A program made the translations under genes and the position numbers. A stretch of DNA of 64,000 nt from a bacterium (GTDB taxonomy: Bacteria; Patescibacteriota; Patescibacteriia; JACPHY01): the NCBI GenBank assembly GCA_030646955.1, contig JAUSKM010000015.1:285-64284 (forward strand), in the 5' to 3' direction. This document shows positions 14,369 to 23,927 of this stretch, one piece after another. The notes below the pieces were generated by a model, which saw only the letters and a program-made list of their open reading frames with translations, was not told the DNA's origin and did no database searches. The stretch's first letter is position 1. Every line of letters starts with the position of its first letter.

Positions 14369-16171
14369 CTACTCCATAATGGGCGCGGCTGCGGTGCCTC
14401 GTGCCGGTTCGCTCGCTGCGATGACGCGGGAAGAAGCGAACACCTCCAGGGCGGCGTCAACGGTGGTGTCGCCGGTGGCGGGGCGGCAGGCGCGGTCGAG
14501 CTCTTCAAAGTGCTCCACCGCAATCGCGACGGGATCCAGGTGGAGGGGCGTGCCGACGATGCGTGCGATGGCGCTGGTGAGCGGCTCTATGATGCCGGGC
14601 TGCCGCACTTTCTCCGCGTGGAGCTTGTAGCGGAAGCCGATGGTGAGCGTCCCGTCTGCAATGCGTTGCGGGCGACCGCCTTCCAGGAGGTACGGGATGG
14701 AGCGGTTGACGTCCGCGAGATCGCGGATGATGTGGTGCCATTGTTGCTGGACTTTCGAGAGCGCCTCGGTGGCGCTCTGGATGACGGTGGATGTTGGAAG
14801 TTGCTCCCTCCTCCCGGCGGAAGGGGGAGGAATAAAACGCACCCCCTCTGACTCCCCCTCTTGAAGAGGGGGAGGAACCGGATCGGATGTATCTGTTACC
14901 GTCGTTGGGAGTTTGATGCTTGCAGGGGTACGAGCGCGCGAGGCGTGTTGGGGGGTACGGGCTGCACCGCCGGTGGTGGCGGGTGGAGCATCGTCGTCAT
15001 TGCTCCGCGATGCGTCTCGCTGAGACGAGGCGAGCTGCGCGGGATTCATTTTGCCTGGTGATGCGCTCGCTGCGGGCGCTGCGGGAACGAATGGGGAGCG
15101 CGCGAGGAGCGTAAGGACGGCAACCTCGAGGAGGAAGAACGGACGGTCTGCACGACCGATGCGATCCAGGAGTTCCGTGAACATGCGAAGCGCGAACACC
15201 TGTGCCGTCGCAACGGCACCTTGCTGGGCGGCAGCGCGTGCGGCGCTGCGCAGCTCGTTGATGATGTCGCGACAAAACGCATCCGCATCGCATCCCTCGG
15301 CTGATGCAGCATCGAGCGTGGCCAGGGCCAATGCGGTGTCGCCGGCACCAACCGCGCGAAGCAGCGTCTGGACATGCACCATGTTTGATTGCGGGAGCAC
15401 GAGCGCGGCAACATCGGCCGTCACTCGCTTCCCGCCCACCGCCATGAGCTGCCCCAACAGGGATTCTGCGTCACGCACGGAGCCGTCTGCCGCGCGGACT
15501 ACCTGCGCGAGCACCTCGTCATCCACGGCAACATCCTCTACCCCTGCAAGCATCCGGAGCCGCTCCGTGAGCGTCCCATCCCCCACGCGCCGGAACGTAA
15601 AATGCTGGCACCGTGACGTGATCGTCTCCGGCACCTTCTGCATTTCCGTTGTCGCAAGGATGAAGTGGACGTGCTCTGGCGGCTCCTCCAGCGTCTTGAG
15701 GAGCGCATTAAAGGACGCCGTCGAGAGCATGTGCACCTCGTCAATGATGTACACCTTCTTTGCTGCAACTGCGGGGGCGATACGCACCGCCTCGATGATG
15801 TACTCACGCACCTTCTCCACCTGCGTGTTGGATGCCGCATCAATCTCCACGACATCCATGCAACGTCCTGCGGTAATTTCCTCGCACCGGATGCAGGCGT
15901 TACAAGGCACGGGAAGTGTTTGCTTCGACCGGTGCTTCGCGCGAGTTTCTTCGTCGCTCCGCTCCTCGGAATGACGAGGAGCGAGGCAATTCACCGCCTT
16001 CGCCAGGAGCCGCGCGGTGGTGGTCTTTCCAACGCCGCGCGGACCGGAGAAAAGGTACGCATGCGCAACACGACCCGCCGCGATAGCCGCGACGAGCGTG
16101 CGCGTGACATGCTCCTGCCCCACGACGTCCTCAAACGTCTGCGGGCGATGCTTACGATACAGTACGGGCAT
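14369..16171 (-). CDS. dnaX: DNA polymerase III subunit gamma/tau
   Basis: MPVLYRKHRPQTFEDVVGQEHV, Walker A GPRGVGKTT, DEVHML, TSRCQ. Start trimmed to the ATG at 16171. It carries two repeat-derived segments (features at 14805 and 15941). Confidence 0.9.
   Translation of the reverse strand: MPVLYRKHRPQTFEDVVGQEHVTRTLVAAIAAGRVAHAYLFSGPRGVGKTTTARLLAKAVNCLAPRHSEERSDEETRAKHRSKQTLPVPCNACIRCEEITAGRCMDVVEIDAASNTQVEKVREYIIEAVRIAPAVAAKKVYIIDEVHMLSTASFNALLKTLEEPPEHVHFILATTEMQKVPETITSRCQHFTFRRVGDGTLTERLRMLAGVEDVAVDDEVLAQVVRAADGSVRDAESLLGQLMAVGGKRVTADVAALVLPQSNMVHVQTLLRAVGAGDTALALATLDAASAEGCDADAFCRDIINELRSAARAAAQQGAVATAQVFALRMFTELLDRIGRADRPFFLLEVAVLTLLARSPFVPAAPAASASPGKMNPAQLASSQRDASRSNDDDAPPATTGGAARTPQHASRARTPASIKLPTTVTDTSDPVPPPLQEGESEGVRFIPPPSAGRREQLPTSTVIQSATEALSKVQQQWHHIIRDLADVNRSIPYLLEGGRPQRIADGTLTIGFRYKLHAEKVRQPGIIEPLTSAIARIVGTPLHLDPVAIAVEHFEELDRACRPATGDTTVDAALEVFASSRVIAASEPARGTAAAPIME
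14805..14874. repeat. Two adjacent G/C-tract hairpins inside the dnaX 3' half
   Basis: ctccctcctcccggcggaagggggagga and ctccccctcttgaagagggggag. Translated as PPLQEGESEGVRFIPPPSAGRRE. Confidence 0.65.
15941..15975. repeat. Family-T repeat unit inside the dnaX zinc-module region
   Basis: The reverse complement gtcattccgaggagcggagcgacgaagaaactcgcg is near-identical to the intergenic unit gtcattgcgaggagcgaagcgacgaagcaatcccgg at 24924-24961. Translated as RHSEERSDEETRA. Confidence 0.75.
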
Positions 16172-16198
16172 ACGCTGCCGGAAGCGAACAACCACCAA

Positions 16199-16969
16199 CT
16201 ATCCCCTGATGATGTTCTCCACTGCCGCCCAGGTGGAGGGAGCGTCTTTGGGGACGAGGACGACAACTTCGTCGCCGGGCTCGCCGTGGTAGTAGGTCAC
16301 CGACGCGCGAAGGATGCGGAAGCGCTTGTACTCCGTGGTGGGGAGATCACTCCCCTCTGCGATCGCGCGCGCAATACCGCTGCGCTCGCCGTCCGCATCC
16401 GGCACAATCACGACGTACTCTCCACTCACGTCATCGCGCTCCAGCACGCCGACGCGACGATCGCGCGCGATCGGGCCGATCTGCTTGTACACGAACGCGC
16501 CGCGCTGGGTGATGCGGAGCTTCAAGATGTCGCCTTCCACGAGCTTGGACTTTGATGCGTAGTTCGACGGAACGCTGTATTGCTTTCCGTCCGGACCCAC
16601 CATGTGCTGCCCATCGAACACACCTTCAATGACGCGCGCCGCATCGGTGTCGGGATTCGCGCCGCTGCTCAGCATGGGATCAAGCGGTCGAACATGCGCC
16701 ATAGTTTTTGGCATTGCTGCCCCTCCTCCAGCAGTCGCCATTGCCATCACGGGAACATTGGCAACCTCACGATCCATGAGCATGAGGAGCTGACGGATGT
16801 GCGTATCCAGCTCCCGAAGTTTTTCGCGAATCACCTCCATGGAATCTGATGTCGCGACTCCCGACGGAACCTGGAGCGCCGGGAACAGCTCTGACGGATC
16901 AAACTCCGCACCCTCGAATGACGCATCCATGGAATCGAACGGAAACGATGGCATGTTTTGGTTTTCCAT
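16199..16969 (-). CDS. Conserved-looking hypothetical protein (acidic N-terminus, beta-rich C-terminus)
   Basis: Only the last 256 codons of the 627-aa track ORF look coding: MENQNMPSFPFDSMD...VIEGVFDGQHMVGPDGKQYSVPSNYASKSKLVEGDILKL...VLVPKDAPSTWAAVENIIRG. The upstream part is Arg/Ser/Trp-rich and antisense to a better plus-strand ORF. Confidence 0.65.
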   Translation of the reverse strand: MENQNMPSFPFDSMDASFEGAEFDPSELFPALQVPSGVATSDSMEVIREKLRELDTHIRQLLMLMDREVANVPVMAMATAGGGAAMPKTMAHVRPLDPMLSSGANPDTDAARVIEGVFDGQHMVGPDGKQYSVPSNYASKSKLVEGDILKLRITQRGAFVYKQIGPIARDRRVGVLERDDVSGEYVVIVPDADGERSGIARAIAEGSDLPTTEYKRFRILRASVTYYHGEPGDEVVVLVPKDAPSTWAAVENIIRG

Positions 16970-17141
16970 GCAGAAATATTTATGAACGCATACACCCAGC
17001 ATACGTCGCACGGAGCGCGTGCGCAATGGTGGAAAAACGGTGGAGGAAACGGGCGTAGGATGAACATTCCATGAGCACGCCGAGGGGGCCTTGACAGCAT
17101 GCAGTAGCCCATGGTACGGTGCGGGCACGCTCTTTGGCAAC

Positions 17142-17858
17142 ATGCCGGTGAGTGATCGGGAGGAAATGGACATGCAAGAAGGACATGAACGGGGGGGTGA
17201 TGACACGATCGTCGAGCGGGCGTACGCGATGCGACGAGATGGGCAGCTCCTGCAGGCGCAACGGCTCCTGGAGGATGCGGCGAAACGGTATCCGCGCTCG
17301 CCACGCGTCGCGCTTGCACAATCGGACACAGCGATCCAGCTCAACCAGTTCGCCGTCGCCCTCCGCGCAGCACGGCGCGGCATCGCGACGAATCGCGATG
17401 CCGAGCGCGCGGAATGGCACCTCGCGCTCCTCATCAATGCAGGCACCGCCGCACGCGTCCTCCAACGGTTCGACGAGGCGCAGGAGTTCTTGGATACCGC
17501 ATTCCGGATCGAGGAGCACCACCCGCTGGTCAACCTCCAGCTTGCGAGCATCGCGGAGCAGACGCGACGCCCAGAGGAGGCCGCGCGATTTGCGCTCCGA
17601 GCAATCGCAAACGCGAGGAAGCTCCCCGACAGCGAACGACGCATCCTGCTTGGCGCATCCGCCATCCTCAACGCGGAGACGGTCGCGCCACGTGCGACAC
17701 GCACGCAACGCGCCGTCGCCGCCGCCGTCCGCATCATCTGCGGCGATGCCGCACTCATTGTGCGACGCCAACGTCTGCTCCGCCTCTTCGACCTGCAGCT
17801 CACGCCGATAGAGCGGCGTGCGGCAGGAACGCTCACGCACCTCCTCGGCAGTGCGTGA
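17142..17858 (+). CDS. TPR-like helical repeat protein
   Basis: ...AYAMRRDGQLLQAQRLLEDAAKRYPRSPRVALAQSDTAIQLNQFAVALRAARRGIA... shows helical-repeat periodicity with GC-rich third positions in this frame. The track start at 17091 is TTG; the first ATG is at 17142. It is convergent with the ATPase gene. Confidence 0.5.
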   Translation: MPVSDREEMDMQEGHERGGDDTIVERAYAMRRDGQLLQAQRLLEDAAKRYPRSPRVALAQSDTAIQLNQFAVALRAARRGIATNRDAERAEWHLALLINAGTAARVLQRFDEAQEFLDTAFRIEEHHPLVNLQLASIAEQTRRPEEAARFALRAIANARKLPDSERRILLGASAILNAETVAPRATRTQRAVAAAVRIICGDAALIVRRQRLLRLFDLQLTPIERRAAGTLTHLLGSA

Positions 17859-17878: not shown

Positions 17879-17901
17879 GCCCCGCACCAATGGTGCGGGG
17901 C
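17879..17901. terminator. Bidirectional hairpin between convergent genes
   Basis: gccccgcacc aat ggtgcggggc, a perfect 10-bp stem. Confidence 0.6.
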
Positions 17902-17921: not shown

Positions 17922-20342
17922 CTACCCCAGCTGTGACCGCTCCATGATCTCCTGCTCCACGAGCATGCGATCGCGTCCGTAGGTGAGGCGCGAGAGCTGC
18001 CGAATGGCATCCGCCACCTTGGGATCGCCGTGCGGCGGCGGACGCGTGTAGAAATTGAACGGCCGCTGCGCGGTGTTGTCAATCATGAGTCGGATGTACG
18101 CATTGCGCGCCTCGATGTTCATGACATCGTGCTGCGTCACGGGCGGGCCAAGCTGTGTCGCGATGGTCTCCGCATCGTCCACACCCACGCGGAAGCTCAC
18201 AACGGAGCCCACGTTCCCAAAAATCGCATCACGCACAGCCGTGTCGTTGTTCTGCACGAGCTGGCCAATGTACTGATGCGCCATGATAAGGTTCAACCGG
18301 TACTTGCGCGCCTCGGCAAGAATGGTCGCAATGGAATCGGTTACGAAGTTCTGAAACTCGTCAATGTAGAGGTAGAAGTCCTTGCGATCCGCCTCTGGCA
18401 TGTCCGCACGCGCGAGCGCGGCGATCTGCAATTTCGTCACACAGATGAGACCCAGGAGCTTCGCGTTCATCTCGCCCACTTTGCCCTTTGAGAGGTTCAC
18501 GAGCAGAATCTTTTGCTTGTCCATTATTTCACGGAAATCAATGCCGGAATGTTGCTGACCGATGATGTTGCGCACCATCGTATTCTCAATAAACCTGCCG
18601 ATCTTTGAAACGAGGTACGGAAGCATCTCGCCCTTGGTCTGACTGCTCGTCTGGGGCAGCTCTTTCTCCCAGAAGGCGCGCACGATAGGATCCGTCACCT
18701 GCTGAAGTTTGAGCTTCTGGTACCCCTCGTCCGTAAGGATGCGTGGGATTTCCACGAGCGTCCCCGGGTTCTGCATGTCCGCCATGAGCGTAATCATCGC
18801 GTTGCGCATGTAATGCTCAAACATCGGCCCGATCATCTGCGGATCGGAGACGAGCTTGTAGAAGATTGCGATCATCTCCTGCGTCGCAAAATCAATCGCC
18901 TCCGGCGTTTTTGCTTCCAGCATGTTGAGGCCTACCGGCCGCTCAACATCGGACGGGTCAAAAACAACAACATCACCCGCGCGCTCCTTGGGGATGTTCG
19001 GAAGCACGTCCTCCACGAACGAGCCGTGCGGATCAATGACGCACACACCCTTTCCGGCGCGAATGTCCTGGATCACCATGTTCAACATGATGTTGGTCTT
19101 TCCGACGCCCGTGCTCCCGATGAGGTACATGTGCCGCTGGCGATCCTGCTGCTTCATGCGTACCGTCACGTTACGGCCGCGGTATGACGCATCGCCCAAA
19201 ATGACGCCCTCCGTGGGGAGTGATACTGGCGGTGCTGCACGCCGTGCGCCGAGCCATTCAATGTTCGGCGTCTGCGCGGACGGCAGCGGGAGATGCCACA
19301 CACTCGCCATCTCCTCTGTATTGAGCACCACACGCTGCCGCTCATCAAACTGGCGGTACACAAAGCGGCGGATGCGTGCATCATCCGCGCTGGCCTTCCC
19401 CACCACGAACATGTTGCCGTACTCGGGCATCCCGTACTGCGCAAACGCCTGCGTGATGGAATTGAGGACGAGATCTGTACGCTCTGCCGTTGCTGCAGAT
19501 GCAACGATACGGACGTTCGCATCGAGTCCAAACTTTGATGCCTTCTCCTCCAATCCCTTCACGATCTCCTGCTCCATGGGTGAGAGCTGGTGCTGCTCTT
19601 TTTCTTTCGTACCGCCACCGATACCCGCGATTGCTCTCCACGATGTGCCACCTGCGGCATCCTTCCCCTGCTGCATGTCGCGCGCTTTCTGCACCCCGCC
19701 CGAACGCCACGAGCGGCGTGCAGACCGGACGACGAACTGCATCGCCGCACCCTCCTGCTCGCCAATCTTGCTCATCGCATTCGTGAGCGCATCGAGCGGA
19801 TCGGATTCCATCTTGCGGTAGGACTTGATGGGGTAGTATCCCGCGCGCTTGAATGTCACCGTCGCACCGCGAATAACGCCGTGCGGCTGGAAAATATTGT
19901 AGTCACTCGCCTCACTCATCGAGGCATCGGGCTCCTGCGCATGGAGCTGCTCCTCAATATACCCCTGGTGCCGGCGCGGTATTGCAATGTAAAACTGTAC
20001 CTTGCCGGCGGACGCAACAATTTCGAACGCGAACGTATCATCGCGCCCAAAGAGCCAGGCCTTCAGTCCGCGCTGGGCGTGCAGTCCCGCAATCGCGGTA
20101 AAAAACGCCTCGGTCTGCGCGATGGATTCCTGAATTTGCTGCGAGTTTGCCACGCCCTGCTCCTCCTCACGACCGCGCTCGCGCGGGACAAGCACCTTGA
20201 GCACCACCAAATCAAATGTCCGCACGACGGAGACGTGGTGCCGGGCAATCGCTCGCACGATGAACAGCGCCACTATGAACGCACTGCCGGCGCCGAGAAA
20301 CACCGCGAGCGCGATGAGAATCTGGAAAATAGACAGCGTCAT
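17922..20342 (-). CDS. VirD4/TraD/TraG-like membrane-anchored AAA ATPase (type IV coupling-protein-like)
   Basis: N-terminal TM segment (ILIALAVFLGAGSAFIVALFIV), Walker A HMYLIGSTGVGKTN, Walker B DFYLYIDEFQNF, and a C-terminal AHQYIGQL...FRVG region. Start trimmed to the ATG at 20342. Confidence 0.8.
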   Translation of the reverse strand: MTLSIFQILIALAVFLGAGSAFIVALFIVRAIARHHVSVVRTFDLVVLKVLVPRERGREEEQGVANSQQIQESIAQTEAFFTAIAGLHAQRGLKAWLFGRDDTFAFEIVASAGKVQFYIAIPRRHQGYIEEQLHAQEPDASMSEASDYNIFQPHGVIRGATVTFKRAGYYPIKSYRKMESDPLDALTNAMSKIGEQEGAAMQFVVRSARRSWRSGGVQKARDMQQGKDAAGGTSWRAIAGIGGGTKEKEQHQLSPMEQEIVKGLEEKASKFGLDANVRIVASAATAERTDLVLNSITQAFAQYGMPEYGNMFVVGKASADDARIRRFVYRQFDERQRVVLNTEEMASVWHLPLPSAQTPNIEWLGARRAAPPVSLPTEGVILGDASYRGRNVTVRMKQQDRQRHMYLIGSTGVGKTNIMLNMVIQDIRAGKGVCVIDPHGSFVEDVLPNIPKERAGDVVVFDPSDVERPVGLNMLEAKTPEAIDFATQEMIAIFYKLVSDPQMIGPMFEHYMRNAMITLMADMQNPGTLVEIPRILTDEGYQKLKLQQVTDPIVRAFWEKELPQTSSQTKGEMLPYLVSKIGRFIENTMVRNIIGQQHSGIDFREIMDKQKILLVNLSKGKVGEMNAKLLGLICVTKLQIAALARADMPEADRKDFYLYIDEFQNFVTDSIATILAEARKYRLNLIMAHQYIGQLVQNNDTAVRDAIFGNVGSVVSFRVGVDDAETIATQLGPPVTQHDVMNIEARNAYIRLMIDNTAQRPFNFYTRPPPHGDPKVADAIRQLSRLTYGRDRMLVEQEIMERSQLG

Positions 20343-20359
20343 GCGTACGAGCGCGATGC

Positions 20360-20809
20360 TTACTTCTGCTTCCGGGCGAGCGCGAGGATTGCGTCGGTCT
20401 TCACCTTTGCTTCTTGCGTAAGAAACCACCGGTTGAGCCGCGGGATGACGTGCAGCCATCGAACGATGTCTCCGTGCGCTTCCCGCACATCCACCGGACC
20501 ACGCACGAACATGGCTTCAAGGCGTTCTGCAAGACGGCTGGCAGCGCCACGGAATGCTTGCTGCACCTGCGGGTCCAAACCCATGTAGAGCGCCTTGAGC
20601 TGCTCATCTGCCAATGCAATCTCAATGTCTTCACGCAATGGTGATTTCTGCACGCGCGGCGCCGCCGAGGATTGCGGAATCGACGCGCGCGCTGCAGGCG
20701 ACGCGCTGGCACGCTCCGGCGCTGCCGGGCGTTGCTCGAGCTGTTCCGTGATGCGCGCGAGGGTGCGCGGCTGCTCGACAATCGGTTGTTCCGGTGATCC
20801 GAGCGGCAT
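20360..20809 (-). CDS. Hypothetical protein (disordered N-terminus, helical C-terminus), 18 nt upstream of the ATPase gene
   Basis: 149-aa ORF on the same strand, tightly spaced with the ATPase gene. The C-terminal half is LKALYMGLDPQVQQAFRGAASRLAERLEAMF.... No motif recognised. Confidence 0.55.
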   Translation of the reverse strand: MPLGSPEQPIVEQPRTLARITEQLEQRPAAPERASASPAARASIPQSSAAPRVQKSPLREDIEIALADEQLKALYMGLDPQVQQAFRGAASRLAERLEAMFVRGPVDVREAHGDIVRWLHVIPRLNRWFLTQEAKVKTDAILALARKQK

Positions 20810-20866: not shown

Positions 20867-22306
20867 CTATGCCCCCCCTCGAACCTTCGGCCCGTCTTGC
20901 GTATCTTCAACGGTGTACCCCAGCGCGGCAATCTGCGCGCGGAGACGATCAGCGCGTGCCCAATCCTTCTCGGTGCGTGCGTGCTCTCGCGCACGCACGA
21001 GCTCCAGCACCTCCGGCGGAACGACGAATGGTTTACCCAAAACGTCGCGCAGCCCTAGTGCAAATACCTCATCCGCATACGCAACGAACGCGCTCTGCTC
21101 CACGGTTCGCTCGCTCTTCTTGAGGCATTCCCAGAGCAACGCGAGCGCTTTTGGCGTGTCGAGATCGTCGTTCATGGCATCCAAGAACCGCTCGGTGGTC
21201 TTGTGCACCTTCACCTTCAGCTGCGCGCTCACGCGTACCGGCGGCTTGGGGAATTCGCGGCACTGTGTTCGCAGATGCTCCAGCGCATGCTGCGCAGCGG
21301 TGAGGGATTCCCAGGTAAAGTTGAGCGGCGAACGGTAGTGCGCGCCCAGCACCAAATACCGATATGCAAGCGGATCAATCCCCCGCTCAATCAACTGCGT
21401 GATGGTAATGAGGTTCCCCTCGGACTTCCCCATGCGCTTGCCGTCCACGGTCAGGAATGCGCCATGGAGCCAATACGCTGCGAGCGGCTTCCCGTACGCC
21501 GCTTCGGACTGCGCAATCTCGTTCGTGTGATGGACGGGAATGTGATCAATCCCGCCCGTGTGGATATCAAACGGCTGCCCCAACAGCTCACGGCTCATGA
21601 CGGAGCACTCCAAATGCCACCCGGGGAACCCTGTCCCCCACGGCGATTCCCACTCCTGCTGACGTTTCCTCTGTTCCCCCCCCTCCCGCTGGAAGGGGGG
21701 GCTGGGGGGGGTAGGGTTTGAAAGTTTCCACAGCGCGAAATCGTGCGGCAATCGCTTCTCGCCCACCGCAACGCGCATACCGCCCGCCTTCTCCTCCAGC
21801 TTCTGACCGCGGAACGCCGTGCCGTAGGACGCGAGCTTCGCGGTGTCAAAATACACACCGTCCGATGTCGTATAGGTGTACCCCTGCTTCTCCAAACGCT
21901 CTACCAGCGCAATCTGCTGCGCGATGTACTCCGTTGCCTTGGGCATCGCGTCTGGTGTGAGGATGTGCAGCCGCTCAAGGTCCTGCAGGAATGCCTGCGT
22001 GTAAAAATCCGCCAGTTCCCGCGCAGACTGCTTGCGCTGCGCAGCTGCGCGTTCCAATTTATCCTCGCCGGTATCCGCGTCGCCCACGAGATGTCCTACG
22101 TCCGTAATGTTCATGACGTGCTTCACCCGCAACCCATTGAGCAGGAGCGTCCGCCGAAGCACATCCGCAAACACGTACGACCGCAAATTCCCAACGTGCG
22201 CAAAATCGTACACCGTCGGCCCGCACGTGTACACGCGAACGCTCCGACCGCGCAGCGGCCGGAACGGTTCGATCGTCTTGGTGAGGGAGTTATGGAGCGC
22301 GAGCAT
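20867..22306 (-). CDS. cysS: Cysteine--tRNA ligase
   Basis: VYTCGPTVYDFAHVGNLRSY gives the HIGH-type motif, GWHLECS the zinc site and KRMGKS the KMSKS-type motif. Start trimmed to the ATG at 22306. It contains a repeat-derived insert (feature at 21676). Confidence 0.92.
   Translation of the reverse strand: MLALHNSLTKTIEPFRPLRGRSVRVYTCGPTVYDFAHVGNLRSYVFADVLRRTLLLNGLRVKHVMNITDVGHLVGDADTGEDKLERAAAQRKQSARELADFYTQAFLQDLERLHILTPDAMPKATEYIAQQIALVERLEKQGYTYTTSDGVYFDTAKLASYGTAFRGQKLEEKAGGMRVAVGEKRLPHDFALWKLSNPTPPSPPFQREGGEQRKRQQEWESPWGTGFPGWHLECSVMSRELLGQPFDIHTGGIDHIPVHHTNEIAQSEAAYGKPLAAYWLHGAFLTVDGKRMGKSEGNLITITQLIERGIDPLAYRYLVLGAHYRSPLNFTWESLTAAQHALEHLRTQCREFPKPPVRVSAQLKVKVHKTTERFLDAMNDDLDTPKALALLWECLKKSERTVEQSAFVAYADEVFALGLRDVLGKPFVVPPEVLELVRAREHARTEKDWARADRLRAQIAALGYTVEDTQDGPKVRGGA
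21676..21716. repeat. G/C-tract element inside cysS
   Basis: ccccccccctcccgctggaagggggggctggggggggtaggg. Translated as NPTPPSPPFQREGGEQ. Near-identical to the element in rfbD at 56235. Confidence 0.75.
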
Positions 22307-22307
22307 G

Positions 22308-23927
22308 CTAAGGTGCGAGGCGGGCGCAAATGGCGTACGATGTTGCTGTTCTGTTGAAAGCGGTGCCATTTCGATACCCGCATCCCCAGCTCTGACCTGT
22401 GGTAACTGGATACGAATGCAGTAGTTGCATCGCTCCGGACCCGTCATCTTTACATCCGCCACCGATCCTTTGGCCGGCGGCACAAGTCACGACCCCAGAC
22501 GCAGTTACTGCATTTGCTGGAACACTGAAAGAGCTTTCAATGATTGTGAGACCGATGGATAGATTTCCATCGATCGTTGTATTTCCGTACACGTGCAGCT
22601 TTGCTGTATCGGTTCCCAAGAATCCACCAATGCCCAACCGATCATCGATGCGCTCGTCTCCATACACACGCAACTTCACCCCGGAAGGCGCTGCACCACC
22701 AATACCAACACCCAACGCACCACCCCCGACATGGAGTCGGTTGATCGTACCCAACGCATTCGAGAGCTTCAATTCACCCTCTTCGCTCACTTCCAATATC
22801 GGATCCGCCTGTAGGGGGGTGTAGCTATTGTGCTGCCCCAACACCCTAAACCAACTCGCTCCAACGTCATTCCCATCCGCATCAATCTGCACCTCCGCAT
22901 TTGCGGTGCTGGACATCACAAGAGGCGCGGTAACGTTGAGGGTAGATGCATGCACAAATCCCAATTGCGCACTCTTGTCATCGCGCAGCCGTAACGTAGA
23001 TGTTCCATCAGACGTCGCCACCGTCAATGCGCTCCCAGGATTCGCGTTTGTTGCATTCACCTTGAATTGAATATTTCCACTCGCATCAACATAGAAATTT
23101 CCGGCCGTTACATCAAGATTGGCCTGTGTCCCATTCCCCGCGATTTCCACTTTTCCCGCACGCGCAGTTCCCGCAATCCAGAGGTCACTCCCGCTGGTGC
23201 TCGTCTGCCCCGCTGGTGCGATGACGAGATCCGTAAGGGATACAAAATCGCCCGTTGCACCCGCTGCCGGCCACGCGCCGCGGCAGTCGCCCTGGAGACA
23301 GAGCTGGCCGGTGGTGGCGATGTCGCCCGCGACCCACAGCTTCCTGCTCGCATCCGGCGTAGCGCCGATGCCAACGTTACCCGTGACACCACTCACGTGC
23401 ATGCGCACCGCGGCACTCGTTCCAGAAACGGTACTCAACGTGAGATCTGCTGGAGGTGCCGATGACGACGCTGGCATGGCGACAATCGAGCCCCCCTGAA
23501 CGTAGAGTGCTGGTCCGACAAGTACCCCTTTCCCCGCCTGTCCGTACGCGTAGAGAAATCCGTTAGCGCTCGAAACGTACGCATCACCCGCGGCGTTCTG
23601 CACGCTGAAGTCGGACGAGCCCCGCATGATGAATCTCTCATTTTCCCCGTACAGATACCCGGATCCTTCGCTGCCCTGCAGGATGATGTTCCCACTCGCA
23701 AGGACGTTTGCCGCTTGCAATGCACCGCTGATGACAATGTTGCCCGTTTGCGTCTCTGGGGTCCCTGCGCCCCCCTGCAACCATACAAACCCCGGCGGAT
23801 TACCGGACGGAGGCGCTTGCCCTGGCTCCTGCCACTGCGCGTACGCGGACGATGCAAGTCCCGCAACCCCGAGGAAGAGGGCGACCACAAACATTGCGTA
23901 TGGGTGGTGACGGTTGGATGATTGCAT
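22308..23927 (-). CDS. Secreted tail-fibre-like repeat surface protein
   Basis: Signal peptide MFVVALFLGVAGLASSAYA. Recurring GNVGIGATPDASRKLWVAGD and KLHVYGNTTIDGNLSIG type repeats. An LCLQGDCRGAWP motif and a Cys-containing C-terminal domain. The stop TAG (22310-22308) abuts the cysS ATG (22306). Confidence 0.65.
   Translation of the reverse strand: MQSSNRHHPYAMFVVALFLGVAGLASSAYAQWQEPGQAPPSGNPPGFVWLQGGAGTPETQTGNIVISGALQAANVLASGNIILQGSEGSGYLYGENERFIMRGSSDFSVQNAAGDAYVSSANGFLYAYGQAGKGVLVGPALYVQGGSIVAMPASSSAPPADLTLSTVSGTSAAVRMHVSGVTGNVGIGATPDASRKLWVAGDIATTGQLCLQGDCRGAWPAAGATGDFVSLTDLVIAPAGQTSTSGSDLWIAGTARAGKVEIAGNGTQANLDVTAGNFYVDASGNIQFKVNATNANPGSALTVATSDGTSTLRLRDDKSAQLGFVHASTLNVTAPLVMSSTANAEVQIDADGNDVGASWFRVLGQHNSYTPLQADPILEVSEEGELKLSNALGTINRLHVGGGALGVGIGGAAPSGVKLRVYGDERIDDRLGIGGFLGTDTAKLHVYGNTTIDGNLSIGLTIIESSFSVPANAVTASGVVTCAAGQRIGGGCKDDGSGAMQLLHSYPVTTGQSWGCGYRNGTAFNRTATSYAICARLAP

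Follow-up and report, generated by a model that had tools for sequence, protein, structure and literature searches.

How does an ATPase of the type IV coupling protein (T4CP) kind serve a cell when no other gene of a type IV secretion system (T4SS) lies near it? The question is raised by an 806-aa protein encoded in a 64-kb stretch of patescibacterial DNA (the window, meaning here the whole stretch that was analysed), in which open reading frames and Pfam matches bear out an earlier note's observation that the gene and a 149-aa partner sit between cysS and dnaX. For coupling proteins, a 2025 review describes both the docking site on type IV secretion machines and the manner of docking as still unclear (PMC12857230), and a conserved, relocated, relaxase-less coupling ATPase is an obvious candidate for the missing substrate receptor of the CPR T4SS. 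The earlier note's interpretation, that of an orphan coupling ATPase, survives in part: the T4CP-like motor and the lack of any T4SS gene nearby stand, and its account of orphan status, of the domain preceding the motor and of the neighbouring genes needs correcting.

The locus and the encoded protein

The open reading frame enclosing the ATPase gene (17922-20459, minus strand) corresponds to 845 aa, and alignments with homologues begin at the ATG at 20342 (MTLSIFQ...), so the protein is taken to be 806 aa long (Table 1). Full-length identity of 53-74% to more than 100 listed homologues indicates that the gene is real and under selection; its GC content is ordinary for the window. The 149-aa gene lies ahead of the ATPase gene in the order first described, with a spacer of 17 nt instead of 18. 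The convergent TPR-like gene is likewise present and is best regarded as a local insertion, with which the terminator-like hairpin is consistent; found in 4 of 85 loci, it was rejected as a member of the module. Scans of the window for RNA and regulatory elements returned three tRNAs and generic consensus matches.

Table 1. Features of the ATPase locus (window positions; residue numbers refer to the encoded protein)
Feature	Position	Strand	Residues	Basis or remark
dnaX	14369-16198	-		ORF; Pfam families of the L001 and L003 orthologues
256-aa downstream gene	16199-16969	-		translation; abuts dnaX start
Convergent TPR gene	17091-17858	+		ORF and Pfam
Terminator-like hairpin	17879-17901	-		10-bp stem, 9 G-C pairs, 21 nt past ATPase stop; consensus match only
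ATPase gene (806 aa)	17922-20342	-		ATG at 20342, stop 17922-17924; DUF8128 and T4CP-type motor
P-loop motor domain	17925-19205	-	about 380-806	VirB4/VirD4 clade
Walker B, YLYIDEFQNF	18345-18374	-	657-666	sequence; aligns with TrwB Walker B
All-helical insertion, Walker A-Walker B	18519-18905	-	about 480-608	AF2 secondary structure
Walker A, GSTGVGKT	19095-19118	-	409-416	sequence
DUF8128 domain	19218-20213	-	about 44-375	predicted VirB4 N-terminal-domain-like fold
N-terminal membrane anchor	20256-20333	-	about 4-29	single hydrophobic helix in sequence
Spacer, partner stop to ATPase start	20343-20359	-		17 nt
Partner gene (149 aa)	20360-20809	-		directly upstream of ATPase
Partner C-terminal domain	20363-20638	-	about 58-149	conserved, ~90 aa
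cysS	20867-22483	-		ORF and Pfam

The single N-terminal transmembrane helix and the two P-loop motifs previously read in the protein are both upheld. An AlphaFold2 (AF2) model of the full-length ATPase (pLDDT 90.2, pTM 0.81) has one unbroken helix at residues 5-43, and the basic residues R30, R34 and R41 that come after the hydrophobic helix would leave the remainder of the protein in the cytoplasm. Among 55 family members, G409, G412, G414 and K415 of Walker A and Y659, D661, E662, F663, Q664 and N665 of Walker B are invariant. An all-alpha domain inserted in the nucleotide-binding domain, as expected of T4CPs, is present and contains the most conserved stretch of the protein, mean conservation being 0.77-0.86 in blocks 451-650 versus 0.50-0.67 in the N-domain.

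The absence of other T4SS genes from the window, also noted earlier, is corroborated by profile searches. Pfam scans of about 55 window ORFs, which comprise housekeeping, cell-wall and sugar genes and large surface proteins, found no VirB4, VirB6/8, relaxase or pilin, and no integrase was found in the 64 kb. Jackhmmer seeds for TrwK, TrsE, monoderm VirB4s, TrsD, VirB2, VirB3, a CPR T4SS pilin and two Replic_Relax proteins retrieved nothing else in the window. In related CPR loci, seeds for VirB4, TrsD, VirB2/VirB3, pilin and Replic_Relax retrieved nothing.

Motor and N-terminal domain

The 806-aa protein is a membrane-anchored P-loop motor of the VirB4/VirD4 clade, and by sequence its motor is nearest to the type IV coupling proteins TrwB, VirD4 and TraK, in keeping with the TraD/VirD4-type assignment first made. 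Pfam matches include TrwB_AAD_bind (PF10412; E 2e-16, 60.3 bits against a cutoff of 20.5, residues 393-733), T4SS-DNA_transf (PF02534; E 6e-10, 39 bits, cutoff 20.1), TraG-D_C (PF12696; E 1.4e-7, 31.9 bits, cutoff 22) and DUF87 (E 3e-7), and T4CP profiles match all 25 of 25 family members. The motor aligns by hhalign with TrwB (Prob 96%, E 3e-9) and TraK (Prob 91%), a PDB profile search returned TrwB (5e-7) and DotL (9e-4), and jackhmmer from a TrwB or TraK seed retrieves all 88 family ORFs, as against none of the 88 from TrwK and TrsE seeds. The NCBIfam T4CP models all score far under their cutoffs, the best being SXT_TraD (50 bits, cutoff 366) and conju_CD1115 (44 bits, cutoff 250).

The VirB4-type Pfam profiles AAA_10, CagE (CagE_TrbE_VirB) and TraC do not match the ATPase, and hhalign against VirB4 motors gave Prob 14.6% for TrwK, over 105 columns round Walker A, and Prob 85% for TrsE, over a 92-column C-terminal stretch. 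In predicted structure the motor has 4ag5 as its nearest match, and its closeness to the VirB4 C-terminal domain is about the same as that to TrwB. FtsK/SpoIIIE was rejected as an identity, since the protein has neither a multi-helix FtsK N-terminus nor a gamma domain and Pfam FtsK_SpoIIIE matches weakly in 3 of 25 family members; nor does FtsK turn up in the PDB profile search up to E=1. HerA was rejected likewise, because its matches lie round Walker A only and the N-domain is not a HAS-barrel, and no NurA, Sir2 or DUF partner occurs among the module proteins scanned.

The large domain ahead of the motor, originally described as about 350 aa of unknown function, is a catalogued domain of ~330 aa, Pfam DUF8128 (PF26449), identified through the annotation of the identical NCBI protein P0001 (PF26449 and PF10412). 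Structure prediction, which the earlier note had proposed, gave a fold like that of the VirB4 N-terminal domain, with modest TM-scores of 0.42-0.46 against VirB4 in a Foldseek search of the PDB. A link at the level of sequence was dropped, there being no hhalign signal (Prob below 1% against TrwK, an 8-sequence profile of MPF_T VirB4 N-domains and TrsD of pSK41), and the likeness is structural only. The DUF8128 annotation may provisionally read VirB4-N-terminal-domain-like.

Distribution, relatives and gene order

The ATPase family is vertically inherited, chromosomal and CPR/Patescibacteria-wide, and is already catalogued rather than an oddity of a single genome. There are more than 4,500 homologues, of which all 120 listed carry PF26449.1 and PF10412; the combination of DUF8128 with TrwB_AAD_bind occurs in at least 590 species among GTDB genomes, the N-domain alone forms 1,861 clusters at 50% identity, and the family extends to Gracilibacteria and Peregrinibacteria. 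Very likely these ATPases are the same set as the patescibacterial T4CP homologues surveyed by Quinonero-Coronel et al. 2025 (PMC12102498); the family is found in Uhrbacteria GWF2_39_13 (locus L034), for which Table S3 of the survey gives one t4cp1 match, at 91.8% coverage and not near virB4 (PMC12102498). The N-domain and its VirB4-like fold go undescribed in that survey, as do the partner gene, the synteny with dnaX and the relatives on monoderm plasmids.

With only 148 of 5,713 T4CP homologues, in 2,918 genomes, lying near virB4 (PMC12102498), the separation that made the ATPase seem an orphan is the published norm in Patescibacteria. A VirB4/TrsD/VirB3/VirB2 cluster is present elsewhere in most CPR genomes, the CPR T4SS originated from monoderm conjugation systems, and relaxases are rare (PMC12102498). 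The epibiotic lifestyle cannot do without the T4SS, whose cluster has been reported without a recognisable coupling protein (PMC10633639). In Southlakia epibionticum a T4CP homologue, not necessarily of the DUF8128 type, is dispensable for epibiotic growth and the T4SS genes are essential (PMC12102498).

A new result is the existence of mobile-element relatives of the family. Plasmids of monoderm (single-membrane) bacteria and Bacillus phage G carry full-length homologues of 22-28% identity, with BLASTP E values from 2e-69 to 4e-44: WP_331738717.1 on Embleya sp. plasmid NZ_CP108778 (27.9% over 712 aa, E 2e-69), WP_248290882.1 on Shouchella clausii plasmid NZ_CP012476 (24.8% over 798 aa) and gp156 of phage G (21.8% over 756 aa). 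Aligned with the ATPase family by hhalign, they give Prob 100% over 685-701 columns. All lie in conjugation-type clusters, adjoining VirB4 (identified by AAA_10 at 1e-115 and by P-loop_TraG/TraC) or within 4 kb of it, and the plasmid homologues stand directly before a Replic_Relax (PF13814) protein, the usual position of a coupling protein. These neighbourhoods tilt the balance towards the ATPase being part of a dispersed system.

Also new is the conserved order of partner, ATPase, optionally a protein of 200-270 aa at the slot of the 256-aa gene, and dnaX, which is kept across class ABY1; with cysS in front it recurs in Uhrbacteria, Falkowbacteria, Magasanikbacteria, Kerfeldbacteria, Buchananbacteria and Komeilibacteria. 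The tight linkage claimed for the 149-aa partner holds in 82 of 85 loci, where the partner family, traced only by position-guided jackhmmer, lies directly upstream of the ATPase; L048 has a divergent copy in addition. Its conservation is confined to class ABY1, outside which it is absent. The partner consists of a variable, low-complexity N-terminal half and the conserved C-terminal domain, has no Pfam, NCBIfam, PADLOC or PDB match, and gave 8 close relatives only in a word-based homologue search. The family of the 256-aa protein, whose N-terminal half is coiled-coil or disordered and whose conserved C-terminal domain has NYASKSKLVEGD, is found downstream in 58 of 85 loci. Its Pfam matches are sub-threshold only (Mu-transpos_C_2 in 7 of 17 members, MazE/AbrB in 4 of 17), its PDB matches, DotY at E 0.1 among them, amount to coiled-coil noise, and it was rejected as a Replic_Relax protein, which it does not resemble. 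Of 82 non-redundant loci, 63 have dnaX downstream on the same strand; in 19 of the 63 it comes directly after the ATPase gene, and in 13 of those 19 the gap is <120 nt. The conserved link of the ATPase to the 256-aa gene and dnaX had been missed in the earlier note.

What the ATPase may do

The reading to which we would give about an even chance is that of a domesticated coupling ATPase, working without a relaxase and serving a T4SS encoded elsewhere in the genome, where such a system is assumed. An ancestral conjugation machine of monoderm type would have been repurposed, its coupling ATPase retained but moved away from the virB4/trsD/virB3/virB2 cluster, and its relaxase lost. Most likely the protein would be a hexameric, ATP-driven motor at the cytoplasmic face of the membrane, which would recruit and energise substrates, DNA or protein, for the patescibacterial T4SS-like machine. 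The VirB4-like N-domain could plausibly dock it to VirB4, TrsD or VirB3, because in R388 the N-domains of VirB4 both bind VirB3 and form the contact of the VirB4-VirB4 dimer (PMC9259494). The partner is probably coupled to the ATPase in translation and, by analogy with TrwA-TrwB, TraM-TraD and the adaptors of DotL, would most likely act on the motor as an adaptor or regulator in the cytoplasm. Against this reading weigh the dispensable T4CP homologue of Southlakia epibionticum and the draft genomes that have a t4cp1-type gene but no detected VirB4.

The main competing explanation, possible although on balance doubtful, is an autonomous housekeeping translocase that uses no T4SS channel, for instance one that pumps DNA in uptake, export, segregation or repair and is co-expressed with dnaX; working alone, the ATPase would be a new housekeeping translocase. 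T4CP homologues are more widespread than VirB4 (2,918, or 96%, of 3,035 genomes versus 2,417) and the authors of the survey hold that exaptation cannot be ruled out (PMC12102498), no relaxase is near, and the conservation of the helical insertion suits a single, fixed ligand better than plasmid relaxosomes, which vary. The homologues also occur in genomes without a detected VirB4, as in two Uhrbacteria among the loci (L034 and L081) that have a t4cp1-type gene, but these genomes are drafts. The proximity of dnaX points the same way, yet it is not kept in Gracilibacteria or Peregrinibacteria and may reflect inherited gene order only. Moreover, the mobile-element relatives are always close to VirB4, the predicted fold of the N-domain suggests docking to inner-membrane parts of a T4SS, and DNA binding by the ATPase is itself putative. 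A functional equivalent of VirB4, which would assemble the machine and extract VirB2-like pilins from the membrane, either as a second VirB4 or as the sole one where the canonical gene is missing, is quite improbable: the whole protein is colinear with TrwK and its N-domain is predicted to fold accordingly, Uhrbacteria GWF2_39_13, a draft genome, has two VirB2 genes and a t4cp1-type gene with VirB4 undetected (PMC12102498), and the homologue in L085 has a T4SS_pilin gene 3 kb upstream, but by sequence profile the motor groups with T4CPs, a canonical VirB4 accompanied by TrsD is present as well in most CPR genomes, and on mobile elements the homologue coexists with a true VirB4 in the T4CP position before Replic_Relax.

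An anti-phage defence ATPase of the DptH/DndH or MADS kind is very improbable: matches span the shared motor fold only, the four module proteins scanned (ATPase, partner, 256-aa and TPR) show no match to any other defence component, and a core, syntenic and near-universal distribution is not what defence islands show. Hardly tenable any longer is the view that the gene is left over from a conjugative or integrative element that integrated recently and codes for an ordinary plasmid or ICE coupling protein; its T4CP domains and its homologues on plasmids and in phage would suit such an origin, which is already contradicted by a chromosomal position among housekeeping genes kept across the whole class, and against which stand the level of identity to orthologues in hundreds of species, the normal GC content and a 64-kb surrounding free of Mpf, relaxase and integrase genes.

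Returning to the domesticated coupling ATPase, the occurrence of a VirB4-like N-domain in a coupling-protein subfamily of monoderm plasmids, a jumbo phage and nearly all CPR suggests the hypothesis that this domain pairs with VirB4, TrsD or VirB3. A bolder form, tentative and rather unlikely, makes the N-domain a built-in dock by which the ATPase takes a VirB4-type place on the T4SS inner-membrane complex and may even replace an absent VirB4; it could occupy the position of the "outside" VirB4 subunit of R388, which contacts between N-domains alone hold in place (PMC9259494). Were this so, the DUF8128 clade would be a third, intermediate branch of VirB4/VirD4 ATPases and a near-universal CPR housekeeping translocase expressed with dnaX, and where coupling proteins dock would have a natural answer.

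Compared with known systems, the ATPase differs from classical T4CPs (TrwB of R388, VirD4, TraD, TraK of pSK41 and DotL), in which a membrane segment, usually of two helices, leads directly into the motor, whereas here one helix and the extra domain come first; neither relaxase nor Mpf genes are nearby, and the helical insertion, the most variable region of classical T4CPs, is the most conserved. With the VirB4 ATPases (TrwK of R388; Thermoanaerobacter pseudethanolicus VirB4, 4AG5) it shares no sequence similarity in the N-domain and, unlike them, is not adjacent to virB3, virB2 or trsD, but it is colinear along its full length with TrwK, whose N-terminal domain spans residues 15-400 and whose C-terminal domain spans 400-823 (PMC9259494). 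Unlike its mobile-element homologues, the ATPase is chromosomal, has housekeeping neighbours, an ABY1-specific small partner and no VirB4 or Replic_Relax within 64 kb, and the membrane helix is absent from the Shouchella and phage G proteins; the Embleya protein has an N-terminal hydrophobic segment as the ATPase does, and in all of these relatives, of similar length (812-883 aa), both the N-domain and the motor are homologous to its own.

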